Assembly (NCBI GenBank): GCA_022736555.1
Contig: DZCW01000002.1
Span: 25,070-89,069 of the forward strand
DNA: 64,000 bases
Source: Candidatus Saccharimonas sp.
GTDB taxonomy: Bacteria > Patescibacteriota > Saccharimonadia > Saccharimonadales > Saccharimonadaceae
Direction: 5' to 3'
The position numbers were made by a program, and so were the translations under genes. Shown one piece after another: positions 29,364 through 44,288 of this stretch (within the stretch, counting starts at the first letter, position 1; each line of letters begins with the position of its first letter). The notes beneath the pieces are model-generated. The model worked only from the letters and a program-made list of their open reading frames with translations, was not told the origin of the DNA and ran no database searches.

Positions 29364-30311
29364 ATGACTAAATCCGAAATTCGCAAAGACTATTTCAAGG
29401 ACGAGTATATTATTTTTGCCCCTAGTCGTTCCGAGAGGCCGCAGACTATCGAAAATCCTGCGGTTGTTGAGACTACTGAAAACTGTCACTTTTGTCCGCA
29501 TAGTTTTCATGGCGAGACTATAACCTATCAGGATGATGGTTATGGCGATGATTGGGAAGTGATTTCGATAGTTAACAAATTTGCAGCATTAACACCAGAC
29601 AACGACAGTGCCTACGGCCAGGCCGAAGTGATCGTTGAAACGCGAAAACACGGCATGGATATAAATGATTTTTCAGTTGACCATATCGTCCGAGTTTTTA
29701 ACGCCTATATTGATAGATTTACGAATCTAAAAAACATGGACGGGATCAAACATGTCATCGTGTTTAAAAACGAAGGTGGTAAAGCAGGTGCCTCGATAGC
29801 ACATACACACTCCCAGGTTATTGCTTTGCCCATATTACCGCCTAAAGTCGAAGCTGAAGCTATGGCTTATAATAAATATTACCTCGAACACGCCATCTGC
29901 CCATATTGTGACATTATAAAATTAGAAACCGACAAGCCTAGGGTTATATGGGAAGATGAAAATCTATTTGTATTGGCACCTTATGCTAGCAACTCGCCAT
30001 ACGGAGCCTGGTTCATTCCTAAGCGCCATATTCGATTGATATCCGAACTTACTCGTAGCGAAAAAGAATCGTTTGCGATTGCCATGAAGATTGTCTTAGG
30101 AAAATTGGATGAGATTGGTGTGTCGTATAATTACTTTGTCGAAAATGCTATTAATCGCGAAGACTATCATATGCATATAAAACTAGCGCCACGTCCAAAT
30201 GTTTGGGCCGGTCTAGAGCTAGGTACTGGCGTAATCATAAATTCTATTTTACCGGAACATGCCGCGGAAATTTATCGTGGGGAGACCAAGGCTAAAACAA
30301 TTAGGTTTTAG
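29364..30311 (+). CDS. GalT-like HIT-superfamily nucleotidyltransferase/phosphorylase
   Basis: CHFCPHS zinc knuckle and AHTHSQ (H-x-H-x-Q) active-site motif. Confidence 0.7.
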   Translation: MTKSEIRKDYFKDEYIIFAPSRSERPQTIENPAVVETTENCHFCPHSFHGETITYQDDGYGDDWEVISIVNKFAALTPDNDSAYGQAEVIVETRKHGMDINDFSVDHIVRVFNAYIDRFTNLKNMDGIKHVIVFKNEGGKAGASIAHTHSQVIALPILPPKVEAEAMAYNKYYLEHAICPYCDIIKLETDKPRVIWEDENLFVLAPYASNSPYGAWFIPKRHIRLISELTRSEKESFAIAMKIVLGKLDEIGVSYNYFVENAINREDYHMHIKLAPRPNVWAGLELGTGVIINSILPEHAAEIYRGETKAKTIRF

Positions 30312-30327
30312 TGGTAGAATAGCTAGC

Positions 30328-32840
30328 ATGAGCAGTGGGCAACTAGAGGGACTTTCGTCGAGAGAGGTTAAAGCTAAACAAAAAAGGTTTGGCTATAATG
30401 AACTCCCTAACCAATCCAAAAAGAACGTTCTAAAGATAGTCTTTGGGCTATTAACCGAGCCAATGATATTTTTGCTGATGGCAACCGTCAGTATTTATTT
30501 CGTTTTAGGTGATAAAAATGAGGCTTTTTTGCTGCTTATATCATTTATCGGTATTATTTCGATCGGACTTTACCAGGAATTGAAAACCGAGAAAACACTG
30601 CAGGCCCTGAAAAATCTATCTAGCCCTATATCTGATGTCATAAGGGATGGCAAGCGAGTAACCATTAATGGTCGCGAAATTGTAGTTGGCGATATCATAA
30701 TACTTAGCTACTTAGCGAAGGTAGCCGTGTGCCAGCTGATGCTAGACTAATTTCAGCGGATAATTTTAGGGTTGATGAATCATTATTAACTGGCGAATCT
30801 GAACTGGTTGAAAAGCGAGTGCGAAACGTAACTAGCCCAAATGACAATTTATTGTTTTCAGGCACGCTAATCGTCAAAGGTCACGGTATTGCCGAGGTAA
30901 CTAGTATTAGCGTTAAGACTGAAATTGGCAAAATAGGTACTTCACTAAAATCAATTGGCGTAGAAAAAACATTGTTGCAAAAGGAAGTTAATTGAGTTGT
31001 TGGTTTTGTGGCTATTTTGGCGATTGGTGCATCGCTACTGTTGACTTTGGTGTATTGGATCGGTCGGGGAGACCTAATTCGAGGGCTTTTGGCTGGCTTA
31101 ACACTAGCGATTGCTATTCTGCCAGAGGAATTCCCAGTTGTTCTAATGATATTTTTAACTTTGGGCGCTTGGAGACTAGCTAAAAGTAATGTTTTAACTC
31201 GTAAAGCTCATACTATCGAGACTTTAGGAAGCACGACGGTTTTATGTGTCGACAAAACTGGTACTCTAACTGAAAACCAAATGCGTATAGAGAGTGTAAT
31301 TAACGCCAAGGGGTCTATTTATAATGATAGTTTTGTTGATGTAGCGGAAATAATAGAATATGGAGTTTTGGCTTCACAAAAGAACCCTTACGATCCGATG
31401 GAAGAAGCTTTTATACTGGCTGGCAAGCAAGTTTTTGGAAATATCGACAAAGTATATAACAACCAGGAGATCGTCAGAGAATACCCCGTAGAAGACGGCT
31501 GCCTGTCGGTTGCACAGGTCTGGGGATATAACGATAAACCCGAGGAAGTCGCCTTAAAAGGGGCGCCAGAGACCGTCTTTGAACTCTGTCATATTCATAA
31601 ATCTCAACGCATCAAACTCGAACGCGAAGTTAAGGGTTTGGCCGAACGTGGGTTGAGGGTGCTCGCGATAGCCCGTGGATCGATCGGCAAAGGGGAATTG
31701 CCAGACGATCGTCATGATTTTGATTTCGAGTTTTTAGGTTTAGTTGGTTTAGCTGATCCAGTTCGCAAAGAAGTACCTGCGGCGGTAAAAATATGTGAAG
31801 AAGCTGGCATCAGGGTGATTATGATAACTGGCGATTATTTAGAAATGGCTATTAATATAGCTAAACAGGCTGGTATAGCGAATCGTGGAGCCATCACTGG
31901 ATTAGAGTTTGAGCAGATGTCTAAATCGGATAGGGCCAACACCATTAAGTCCGTGTCGGTGTTTAGTCGTGTTAATCCATCCCATAAATTATTGATAGTA
32001 AATGCCCTAAAAGAGTCCGGTGAAGTAGTGGCTATGACGGGTGATGGGGTTAACGATGCACCCGCATTAAAGTCGGCGCACGTCGGTATTGCGATGGGTG
32101 GCAGGGGTACGGATGTTGCTCGAGAAGCGGCCAGTATAGTGCTGCTGGACGATAATTTTACTTCAATCGTTCATGGTGTTCGTCTAGGGCGCAAGATTTA
32201 TGATAATTTGCGCAAGGCCATGTCATATATTATTTCAGTCCATATTCCTATTGCCCTATTGTCGCTTTTGCCCGTGCTATTTAAATGGCCAATAGTTTTG
32301 ATACCAGCCCATATTGTGTTTTTAGAATTTGTGATTGACCCAAGTTGCACGATTATTTTCGAGAATGAAAAAGAAAGTCATAACATCATGAGCCGTCCAC
32401 CGCGTAAACTATCTGAGCCAATCTTTAGCAAAAGGATGGTCGTAAGTAGTATTCTGCAGGGCTTATTAGTAGCGATAATCGTCGTAGTTGCTTTTAGGGT
32501 ATTATTAGATATAGGCTGGAGCCCAGATAAAGCTCGCGGTATGACGTTTCTAATACTAGTCATTGCTAATATCTTCCTGATATTAGGTATCTCCGGTAAA
32601 CAGGCTATAGCAAATATTATTCATCGTGAGAATAAAGCCATGATAATAGTTCTATTAGTAACATCCATATCGCTAGTCTTGGTGTTCAATGTGGTGTTTT
32701 TGCGAGAGCTATTCCATTTCGAGCCATTAACTTTTAACGAAGCATCAATAGGAGTGTTGGTAGGCGCTTTGTCGATATTCGGTATTATGCCGCTTAAATA
32801 TTTGATAAATAGGGTGGCTTCTAGGGGTTTAGCGAAGTAG
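30328..32840 (+). pseudogene. Cation-transporting P-type ATPase (type II-like), disrupted
   Basis: Three track ORFs (30259-30750, 30729-30995, 31008-32840) jointly carry TGES, DKTGTLT, TGDGVNDAP and 10 TMs. A frameshift is caused by the 8-bp duplication at 30701-30716, and an in-frame TGA lies at 30993-30995. Confidence 0.85.
30701..30716 (+). repeat. 8-bp perfect tandem duplication TACTTAGC TACTTAGC causing the frameshift
   Basis: Removing one copy restores [36 protein letters not shown], the canonical A-domain sequence. Confidence 0.9.
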
Positions 32841-32871: not shown

Positions 32872-32990
32872 AAAGGACTCAGTCACGATAAAATTCATTC
32901 TGAATTTTTCGCGACCCCGCCTCAGTCGGTGACGTTCGTCATCCGGCTTCCGGCCTTGCGAACTGCCGTCGGGCAGTTCTCACCTTCGAC
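32872..32990 (-). other. tRNA-Pro T-arm copy split by a 100-nt GC-rich hairpin-rich insert (candidate structured RNA or att-site scar)
   Basis: 32872-32881 is identical to 33088-33097, and 32982-32990 is identical to 33099-33107 (the tRNA-Pro T-arm). The 100 nt between them contain several stem-loops, e.g. GAACTGCC-GTCG-GGCAGTTC at 32960-32979. The core is about two-thirds G+C by hand count. Confidence 0.3.
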
Positions 32991-33036
32991 TTTTTTTGCT
33001 TTGCAAAAAAGTCGAAGATTCAGGCTTGTCAGCTCT

Positions 33037-33080
33037 ACCAAATAAAAAACCTGACATGAATGCCGGATTTTTTATTTGGT
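33037..33080 (-). terminator. Hairpin directly after tRNA-Pro that includes its ACCA end
   Basis: ACCAAATAAAAAA ... TTTTTTATTTGGT, a 13-bp stem with an 18-nt loop. Confidence 0.55.
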
Positions 33081-33152
33081 CGGGGTGAAAGGACTCAAAC
33101 CTTCGACCTCACGGTCCCAAACCGCGCGCGCTATCAACTGCGCCACACCCCG
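33077..33152 (-). tRNA. tRNA-Pro(UGG)
   Basis: Acceptor CGGGGTG/CACCCCG and anticodon loop TTTGGGA. CCA is encoded. D-loop AGTTGATA and T-loop TTTGAGT imply A19:U56 in place of the usual G19:C56. Confidence 0.9.
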
Positions 33153-33263
33153 ATGGTGTTACCTGGCAGATTATAGCGTATTTTTAACACGATTTCTAGT
33201 GGTGATGGCTAAAATGTCACTTGTCGATCAGGTTAAGGCGGGTTAATATAGAGGTAATTAACT

Positions 33264-41813: not shown

Positions 41814-41855
41814 AAAATAAAATAAGCCATCCGTAGAGTTGGCTTATTTTATTTT
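41814..41855. terminator. Bidirectional hairpin between the micro-ORF and tRNA-Arg
   Basis: AAAATAAAATAAGCCA / TGGCTTATTTTATTTT, a 16-bp stem abutting the tRNA 3' end. Confidence 0.65.
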
Positions 41856-41930
41856 GGTACCCCGGGTTGGAATTGAACCAACGACCTTAGGCTTAGAAGT
41901 CCTCTGCTCTATCCACTGAGCTACCGGGGC
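41855..41930 (-). tRNA. tRNA-Arg(UCU) with a weak anticodon stem
   Basis: Good acceptor, D and T arms and anticodon loop CTTCTAA. The anticodon stem GAGGA/GCCTA has only 3 Watson-Crick pairs, flanked by G-A and A-G. CCA is encoded. Confidence 0.8.
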
Positions 41931-41975: not shown

Positions 41976-41991
41976 CTCAGTGGATAGAGCA
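41976..41991 (+). repeat. Inverted 16-nt copy of the tRNA-Arg(UCU) D-arm segment
   Basis: CTCAGTGGATAGAGCA is the reverse complement of 41905-41920. Confidence 0.85.
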
Positions 41992-42018
41992 AGCTTATTT
42001 TTTATTCGCTTCGCTTGG

Positions 42019-42036
42019 CACTGAGCTACCGGGGCG
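42019..42036 (-). repeat. Direct 18-nt copy of the tRNA-Arg(UCU) 5' end
   Basis: CACTGAGCTACCGGGGCG is identical to 41914-41931. Confidence 0.85.
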
Positions 42037-43756: not shown

Positions 43757-43834
43757 GGCGGATGTAGCTCATCTGGTTAGAGCGTCGGGTTGTGGTTCCG
43801 AAGGTAGTGGGTTCAATCCCCATCATTCGCCCCA
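43757..43834 (+). tRNA. tRNA-His(GUG) with encoded G-1
   Basis: An extra 5' G pairs with C73. Anticodon loop TTGTGGT. CCA is encoded. Confidence 0.95.
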
Positions 43835-43875: not shown

Positions 43876-43907
43876 TGTACGGTTGGATAGAACCCACGAA
43901 GTAGTGG

Positions 43908-44288
43908 GTGAGAACTGGTATACTAGTTATAGTTATGGATTTAAATAAATATATCGTTAGTGATAATACAGGCAAGCCGTTTCATAGTAGCGGAATTGCC
44001 AGAATTAACAGAGGCGATAGGTTGGGCGTAGATACTAATGTATCATTTAATCAACGGCAACAAATCAACGGCAATCGACAATTAATTAATGATTATCACA
44101 GTTCTGTAATAGGTAATACTCGTAGTGTTTTGGCCGCCAGGCCAGTTAGCCCGGAAGCGATAGATAGTCGTTTAAGGGTGCCAGCTAGACAGCCAATCCA
44201 AAATCCTCGTAATACTACGCAGGGTATAACTATACCGCCACGTAGTTTTAACGAGCCTAATGCCAGAGGCTATAACCCTTACTCCTAG
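43908..44288 (+). CDS. Hypothetical small Arg/Asn/Gln-rich protein
   Basis: 126-aa ORF from a GTG start (an alternative ATG lies at 43935). No motif recognised. Its stop overlaps the murA stop in CTAG. Confidence 0.4.
   Translation: MRTGILVIVMDLNKYIVSDNTGKPFHSSGIARINRGDRLGVDTNVSFNQRQQINGNRQLINDYHSSVIGNTRSVLAARPVSPEAIDSRLRVPARQPIQNPRNTTQGITIPPRSFNEPNARGYNPYS

Follow-up and report, generated by a model that had tools for sequence, protein, structure and literature searches.

A conserved three-hairpin module within a partial tRNA-Pro copy of Candidatus Saccharimonas, and its relatives beside other tRNA genes

The segment that interrupts a partial copy of tRNA-Pro(UGG) in the window (the whole 64,000-nucleotide stretch of DNA that was analysed) is a member of a conserved, covarying and strand-specific module family with exact ends. 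The module is a dispersed, non-coding, three-hairpin unit that is present in many copies in Saccharibacteria and in some other Patescibacteria, and its family A, to which the window copy belongs, nearly always lies within a partial tRNA copy adjoining the intact gene. The insert is probably, though far from certainly, a non-autonomous and structure-dependent insertion module that has settled in a spare tRNA-Pro fragment and is mobilised from elsewhere. Its setting in the window is as follows.

33170-33198, minus strand: putative promoter-like site, TAGAAA-17-TATAAT, ahead of tRNA-Pro (consensus scan, 10 of 12 positions)
33077-33152, minus strand: tRNA-Pro(UGG) gene, intact and with its CCA end encoded (ARAGORN; Rfam tRNA model, 60.9 bits)
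33038-33079, no strand assigned: A/U-rich hairpin CCAAATAAAAAA...TTTTTTATTTGG, which begins inside the tRNA-Pro CCA end (read from the sequence)
33011-33041, plus strand: degenerate inverted copy of tRNA-Pro nt 46-76, 21 of 31 positions identical (local alignment)
32984-33017, no strand assigned: 13-bp hairpin CTTCGACTTTTTT / AAAAAAGTCGAAG (sequence; whole-unit minimum-free-energy fold)
32983-32990, minus strand: direct copy of tRNA-Pro nt 46-53, GTCGAAGG (exact match)
32882-32982, minus strand: family-A module, 101 nt, 5'-UGAGAAC...CGUGAC-3', which replaces U54-U55 of the tRNA-Pro copy (model R1)
32957-32982, minus strand: hairpin Ha of the module (covariation)
32919-32954, minus strand: hairpin Hb of the module (covariation)
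32882-32915, minus strand: hairpin Hc of the module (covariation)
32872-32881, minus strand: direct copy of tRNA-Pro nt 56-65, TGAGTCCTTT (exact match)

On the tRNA strand, tRNA-Pro is followed by the A/U-rich hairpin, by an inverted copy of nt 76-46 and by a loop, after which come the direct copy of nt 46-53, the module and nt 56-65; the 3' third of tRNA-Pro is present as a sense-antisense-sense triplication. The unit starts 36 nt behind the gene when the terminator hairpin is taken as a spacer, and the module lies 92 nt behind it on the same strand. The adjacent 13-bp hairpin at 32984-33017, proposed in the sequence-only reading, is borne out by the sequence and by the fold of the whole unit, and it is formed by pairing of the direct copy of tRNA-Pro nt 46-52 with the beginning of the inverted copy. 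The A/U-rich hairpin at 33038-33079 was missed by a simple terminator scan; judging from its sequence, it presumably terminates transcription in both directions and is the axis about which the inverted tRNA-Pro copy is mirrored. An A/U-rich hairpin is arranged in the same way behind tRNA-Pro in most relatives, and inverted tRNA copies are clearer in relatives and behind other tRNAs of the same genome.

The tRNA-Pro(UGG) gene itself has an atypical T-loop (UUUGAGU, with U and not C at position 56) and a D-loop without the usual GG pair, although the Rfam tRNA model still scores it at 60.9 bits. No recombinase or integrase gene was found near the unit, which is surrounded by the ORFs of a P-type ATPase pseudogene and of a membrane glycosyltransferase-like gene. 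The P-type ATPase (30259-32840), whose stop codon is 31 nt from the tRNA-fragment unit, is broken into three ORFs, and because the longest encodes 614 aa, compared with approximately 830 aa in relatives, it is considered a pseudogene. GC skew is positive across the whole window (1-64000), which makes the plus strand the probable leading strand, in which case tRNA-Pro, tRNA-Arg(UCU) and tRNA-Gly are transcribed head-on to replication.

The partial copy was recognised by two short matches, both of which stand as originally described. Positions 32872-32881 (AAAGGACTCA) are identical to 33088-33097, the reverse complement of tRNA-Pro nt 56-65, and 32982-32990 (ACCTTCGAC) are identical to 33099-33107, which correspond to tRNA-Pro nt 46-54. 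Both matches have the minus-strand orientation of tRNA-Pro and are co-linear with it, and the gap between them consists of nt 55 alone in the gene and of 100 nt in the copy. Base 32982, counted above with the module, is readable also as T54 of the tRNA-Pro copy. Matches of just 10 and 9 nt could in principle be chance similarity, but two co-linear 9-mers occur in 0.015% of shuffles (20,000 shuffles of the 236-nt spacer; P ~1.5e-4), and orthologous and paralogous copies are split in the same way with up to 21 nt of tRNA sequence, which makes the probability of coincidence practically negligible. The window copy stops short of the acceptor strand, as does an orthologous copy (in genome G063) that ends at the same CCTTT; in another genome (G014), the same junction is followed by the full 21-nt 3' end of tRNA-Pro.

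Covariance model R1 matches the window copy over its full length on the minus strand (123 bits, E = 2e-29). The G+C content of the insert, first put at two-thirds, is 55% when measured, compared with 40.7% for the window. Relative to shuffles, both strands of the insert fold well, with z = -4.3 (minus) and -5.3 (plus). In an alignment of 32 distinct family-A copies (A1), the module forms three hairpins comprising 33 pairs, of which 21 vary on both sides; pairing is kept in 98.5% of cells. The covariation values were reached by none of 500 shuffles, and slid controls were all far off. Three of the four hairpins originally proposed for the insert are backed by this covariation: GAACTGCC/GGCAGTTC is Ha, TGAC/GTCA is the tip of Hb, and TCACGATAAAATTC/GAATTTTTCGCGA is Hc. 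The fourth, CCGG-CTT-CCGG, was rejected for want of covariation support; its bases instead belong to the central hairpin, Hb, where they make up the base and a conserved internal loop, GGA/GA. This internal loop has a 1-nt bulge, compared with 3 nt in a kink-turn. In A1, G.U combinations outnumber A.C combinations by 55 to 3, or by 23 to 3 without one G.U that is invariant in 32 of 32 copies, and the fold can therefore be assigned to the tRNA-sense strand, which is the minus strand of the window.

Beyond its stems, the module is characterised by invariant unpaired bases, namely GCAAGG, the GGA/GA internal loop and GAGGCGGGG. The family signature, to which the window copy conforms, consists of three hairpins with GCAAGG...GCCGGA...GAGGCGGGGUCGC...GUGAC, within a partial tRNA copy beside an intact gene. 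On the tRNA strand, similarity between copies ends sharply at TGAG and at GTGAC, outside which the flanks vary from copy to copy; the two ends (TGAG.../...GTGAC) share a GTGA that is direct and not inverted. The apical loop of Hc is GGA in more than half of the 32 aligned copies and a GGA triloop in short-Hc variants, and is AGAAU in the window copy; the GGA loops may resemble CsrA-type binding loops. An early suggestion that the T-stem closes a structured RNA domain holds locally, but the module folds alone, its flanks are non-complementary at sites other than the T-loop, and when the whole unit is folded, the partner of GUCGAAG is the inverted copy next to it and not CCUUU. Rfam 15, searched at the gathering threshold and at E up to 10, returned the tRNA and chance microRNA-type matches only, and thus no known RNA family for the insert. 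The literature searched likewise yielded no description of the module family, and the family-A module is, in these sources, uncatalogued.

The modules follow tRNA genes closely. Of 28 copies, 27 have a co-oriented tRNA at a distance of 24-260 nt, the module being approximately 60-92 nt downstream or approximately 24-74 nt upstream of it. The tRNA-derived flanks are frequently exact: nt 56-76 (21/21) flank modules behind Arg, Glu and His tRNAs, nt 1-23 (23/23) flank those before Gln and Phe tRNAs, and nt 9-37 (29/29) flank a module before tRNA-Leu(CAG). Exactly two nucleotides are replaced in all 11 copies in which this can be resolved (TT in seven, CA in two and TG in two), the bases preceding the module in resolvable copies are RG, and microhomology at its 5' junction amounts to 1-4 nt (G, GT, GGTG). 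The window copy, flanked by tRNA-Pro nt 46-53 and 56-65, has U54-U55 replaced. In tRNA numbering, modules are inserted at nt 5/8, 23/26, 30/33, 37/40 and 53/56, positions that lie in loops or at helix junctions. More elaborate cases occur. In one genome (G299), a pseudo-tRNA-Pro upstream of the intact gene has three inserts, at 12/13, 22/26 and 38/40, and the copy downstream of the same tRNA-Pro appears to contain two modules, one nested inside the other. Two copies run antisense to the tRNA fragment around them.

Two other accounts of these patterns were rejected. The modules of the minus-strand tRNA-Pro and the plus-strand tRNA-His both follow their tRNA, although the skew is positive throughout the window, and their orientation is therefore not set by replication. 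A TCAC target in the style of IS200/IS605 elements was discarded because the left TCAC pairs in Hc, and hence is part of the module, and because the flanks before it vary.

The source genome (692 kb, 37 tRNAs) contains further copies. The insert recurs, with 86% identity, behind tRNA-Leu(CAG), and a third, variant copy is located behind tRNA-Val. The Pro and Leu(CAG) copies are identical over a 52-nt centre, and their outer hairpins differ by compensatory changes. The tRNA-Leu(CAG) copy falls within a stretch of 298 bp that has the tRNA-Leu 3' end as a 23-nt direct repeat at its borders. An orphan 23-nt copy of that 3' end lies 277 nt behind tRNA-Leu(CAG) (L004 3083-3105, C1 of the same genome), and beside it is a reversed family-B-like module (L004 3106-3184), such that two different modules are stacked in the 298-bp unit. 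Direct or inverted partial copies are found at approximately 20 of the 37 tRNAs, and at least three module families occur within them: A, as at tRNA-Pro; B, which has a AAAATGTGTTTACATATTTT hairpin at nt 57/58; and C, a hairpin of 34 nt. At tRNA-Val and tRNA-Gly, the unit behind the gene finishes with the full tRNA 3' end and a second terminator.

Two other sites in the window are of related construction. Behind tRNA-His (43758-43834) there is a truncated family-A remnant (43898-43918, plus strand), in which GAAGTAGTGGGT, a direct copy of nt 47-55, is continued by GAGAACTGG before the sequence breaks off, and which is preceded by an inverted T-arm piece; a full module is present at the matching junction in genome G031. 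Upstream of tRNA-Arg(UCU) (41855-41930), a minus-strand unit at 41976-42035 comprises a 5' pseudo-copy of nt 1-17, a 30-nt insert and inverted nt 11-26, and is a mirror image of the tRNA-Pro unit architecture with a different small insert.

Copies are present in 37 of 61 relatives, with up to 15 matching stretches per genome (whole and partial together), often at contig ends. Model R1 matches 62 of 301 sampled genomes of the class, representing 46 of 160 genera and mostly within the order, as well as seven genomes of other Patescibacteria classes, in which a tRNA lies beside four of the six loci checked. Genomes with a single copy also hold it beside a tRNA, often in the tRNA-Gln leader, and some module positions, this leader among them, are common to several genera. 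At the tRNA-Gln leader loci the duplicated segment takes in approximately 16 nt of the leader, which indicates that the duplications are not confined to mature tRNA sequence. A comparison of 30 tRNA-Pro(UGG) loci of the genus found two with a family-A module and four with variants that share Ha and the ends with family A; the rest have no module. Empty sites were also sought by synteny. The ATPase gene is found in five relatives only and never adjoins tRNA-Pro there, and flanking DNA showed no synteny at the tRNA-Leu copy; as these comparisons produced no strain-level pair of filled and empty sites, the case for mobility is drawn from distribution.

Candidate mobilisers were searched for in 41 genomes, the source genome included.

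RVT_1: 11 of 41 genomes; none in the source genome
Y1_Tnp (PF01797), mostly RAYT-like proteins of approximately 210 aa: 20 of 41 genomes; none in the source genome
IS110 (PF01548): 1 of 41 genomes; none in the source genome
TnpB (PF07282): 1 of 41 genomes; none in the source genome
RtcB: 0 of 41 genomes above the curated cut-off; none in the source genome

The presence of RVT_1, Y1_Tnp, IS110 or TnpB in relatives bears no relation to module copy number, and Y1_Tnp was not found in three genomes (G010, G014 and G019) although each has 8-14 module copies. Absent from the source genome and uncorrelated with copy number elsewhere, these candidate mobilisers, including the RAYT type of Y1_Tnp, were rejected. 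About half of the genus genomes have one to four RAYT-like genes. In one case (G023:C8, L103 1465-2028), a 187-aa RAYT-like Y1 (HUH) gene is located directly behind tRNA-Ala, tRNA-Ile and a family-A module, 200 nt from the module; the other two of the three RAYT-like loci checked have no module nearby.

Several known systems resemble the module in part. The tRNA-linked repeats (TLRs) of E. coli, which include the RtT and RrA/B/F sRNAs, are non-coding, multi-copy sequences behind tRNA or rRNA genes and co-oriented with them, with functions that are mostly unknown; they copy only the last 18-19 nt of the upstream gene, and TLR sRNAs sit between dual terminators (PMC8144298). Module units, that of the window included, are similarly located directly downstream of a tRNA in the same orientation, and units close with a repeat of the 3' end of their gene and often lie between two terminators. 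However, the window copy retains only tRNA-Pro nt 46-54 and 56-65, without acceptor strand or CCA, and other family-A copies carry nt 56-76, or 21 nt as opposed to the 18-19 nt of TLRs. There is no relation in sequence or in Rfam, and RtT (RF00391) was not matched. Finally, T-arm splitting, an upstream location in 5' fragments, nesting and the replacement of two nucleotides, all of which are seen in the module family, are not described for TLRs.

Duplications of attL/attR type, produced by tRNA-integrating islands and prophages, have a sublocation in the T-loop. They share with the tRNA-Pro unit an intact tRNA beside a displaced partial copy and a break in the T-loop. The module differs in that it is 101 nt long and gene-less, with no recombinase inside it or integrase nearby, in that an inverted tRNA copy accompanies it, and in that it is found at many tRNA positions instead of one fixed crossover sublocation. 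Mobile non-canonical tRNA introns of archaea (Thermoproteales) are short and structured, and occupy many exact positions in tRNA sequence, always in sense and with up to three in one tRNA. The module, too, is a short structured insert at D-arm, anticodon-arm and T-loop positions, but its hosts are broken spare copies, with an intact tRNA-Pro next door, its junctions have no evident bulge-helix-bulge, two host nucleotides are lost, and RtcB is absent (41/41).

In the plastids of Euglena, group III introns and twintrons are approximately 100 nt long, form nested units and have a 3' hairpin with a bulged A near the 3' end. The module is of similar length, can be nested and has a 3' hairpin with a bulged A; however, there is no evidence of splicing for it, and its hosts are non-functional fragments. 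It begins with GUGAG and finishes with AC, and the bulged A is 7 nt from the 3' end, except in short-Hc variants, which are without it. Suggestive as GUGAG...AC and the bulged A at -7 are, a group II/III intron reading was rejected, since the features of a domain V are lacking and not every copy has the bulged A. In place of the AGC triad and 2-nt bulge of such a domain, the central hairpin shows a 1-nt bulge in its 5' strand and a variable AGC (column 40: G 20, A 9, C 3), and the module has no Rfam intron match.

Among small mobile elements, REP/BIME-RAYT and the palindrome-associated elements of the IS200/IS605 type are, like the module, small, hairpin-rich and gene-less, without terminal inverted repeats or target duplications, and the strand-specific fold of the module suggests a single-stranded substrate, as for these elements. 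Unlike REP/RAYT systems, the source genome and the high-copy relatives have no Y1/RAYT genes, and unlike REP/BIME sequences, the module has three hairpins with a conserved non-palindromic core and targets tRNA-derived sequence only. It also differs from MITEs and other IS-derived elements, having neither terminal inverted repeats nor a target-site duplication and replacing two nucleotides, and from the IS110 bridge-RNA and TnpB omega-RNA scaffolds, whose cognate genes are absent from the source genome and occur in 1 of 41 genomes each.

If the insert is a non-autonomous insertion module, it would land in spare tRNA-like sequence at RG^YN sites, substituting two nucleotides. A folded, single-stranded nucleic acid of the tRNA-sense strand would be recognised by a factor encoded elsewhere, with single-stranded DNA somewhat likelier than RNA as the recognised form, and this factor would be none of the usual small-element transposases. 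Any transcription of the module would be read-through from the tRNA-Pro promoter. The window copy would be old and eroded, with its tRNA 3' arm down to 10 nt. Against the insertion-element reading, compensatory differences around an identical 52-nt centre look like long-term selection for function and not like a recent selfish burst, positions such as the tRNA-Gln leader are common to several genera, and no moving enzyme was found among the families searched in the 41 genomes.

Four rival explanations each fit part of the data and fail elsewhere. It may be that the module is a functional small RNA of the tRNA operon, a counterpart of the E. coli tRNA-linked repeats, made by terminator read-through, with the copied tRNA 3' end as a processing signal, and spread by recombination at tRNA loci rather than by transposition. 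A strand-specific fold with strong covariation and invariant unpaired bases, the phylum-wide conservation of the module, and compensatory changes that keep the copies in one genome foldable would all be expected of such an RNA, and the tRNA-Val and tRNA-Gly units end, like E. coli TLR sRNAs, with the tRNA 3' end and a second terminator (PMC8144298). This model is nevertheless rather unlikely, given a presence so patchy that it differs even between species of one genus, truncated remnants such as that behind tRNA-His in the window, nested and stacked modules, and two copies antisense to their tRNA fragment; moreover, a hairpin terminator precedes the window copy, which no longer has the tRNA 3' end and for which a consensus scan found no minus-strand promoter of its own. 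Site-specific integration, as proposed in the sequence-only reading, would mean that an element crossed over in the tRNA-Pro T-loop and was later deleted, leaving T-arm pieces as att remnants and the 100 nt as arm residue. T-loops are known crossover sites, as Williams is said to have described in 2002, the second copy falls inside 298 bp bounded by the 23-nt repeat of the tRNA-Leu 3' end, and an intact tRNA is preserved beside displaced fragments. The part of the proposal that survives is that the split T-arm copy is genuine and derived from tRNA-Pro, as the full 3' end in G014 attests. As the remnant of one element, however, the insert is improbable: the module is discrete and conserved with fixed ends, no integrase gene flanks the tRNA-Pro unit, and the identical-ended 101-nt unit occurs in other partial tRNA copies at positions in the D-arm, anticodon arm and acceptor, as well as upstream of tRNAs, stacked or nested, with several in one pseudo-copy. 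Two nucleotides are replaced with no duplicated core alongside, and the att model leaves the inverted tRNA copy unexplained.

The two remaining explanations invoke RNA and replication, respectively. Insertion at the RNA level, in which the module enters exposed loops of a tRNA transcript (as an intron or by ligation) and the chimera is copied back into DNA beside the gene, would account for an association exclusively with tRNA sequence, for a polarity that is nearly always that of the tRNA, for insertion sites in loops or helix junctions and for fold-back copies that resemble snap-back products; the GUGAG start, the AC end and the bulged A 7 nt from the 3' end are also in keeping with it. It is made quite improbable by the absence of RtcB from 41 of 41 genomes and of reverse transcriptase from the source genome and from 30 of 41, by the two antisense copies, by a duplicated segment that includes a non-tRNA leader of approximately 16 nt, by hosts that are fragments and hence do not need splicing, and by short-Hc variants in which the bulged A is missing. 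Template switching during replication of tRNA genes, through fold-back or microhomology copying and with no dedicated element or enzyme, is consistent with the sense-antisense-sense triplication of the tRNA 3' third, with the short microhomology (1-4 nt: G, GT, GGTG) of the 5' junction and with partial duplications that take in leader sequence. Because it explains neither the invariant ends and exact two-nucleotide replacement (11/11) nor the phylum-wide conservation and covariation of the module, it is very improbable.

The module family is a large structured family that is missing from Rfam 15 and from the searchable literature, and its members occupy the surroundings of about half of the tRNA genes in genomes of approximately 0.7 Mb, where non-coding DNA is scarce. 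Its behaviour (exact ends, a substitution of exactly two nucleotides, tRNA-derived targets only and, nearly always, the orientation of the tRNA) matches no known mechanism. The window copy adds one eroded example, with an orientation that tracks the tRNA and not the direction of replication. In practical terms, the occurrence of many copies at contig ends implies that modules break metagenome assemblies, and they can mislead the annotation of tRNAs and pseudogenes. The family also provides a way to approach the E. coli tRNA-linked repeats, which have so far lacked an explanation. A bolder and, on balance, unlikely possibility is that the modules form a class of bacterial mobile element not seen before, which would home to single strands of tRNA shape by means of a CPR host factor, without a transposase of a known family. 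The three-hairpin fold may then be the substrate of a conserved CPR host factor, or part of its machinery; that factor may put the module in the place of two nucleotides in a loop or junction of tRNA-like form, and the sense and antisense tRNA copies around the module may be products of the same reaction. If this were true, the E. coli tRNA-linked repeats and these modules would belong to one widespread process that remodels the surroundings of tRNA genes.
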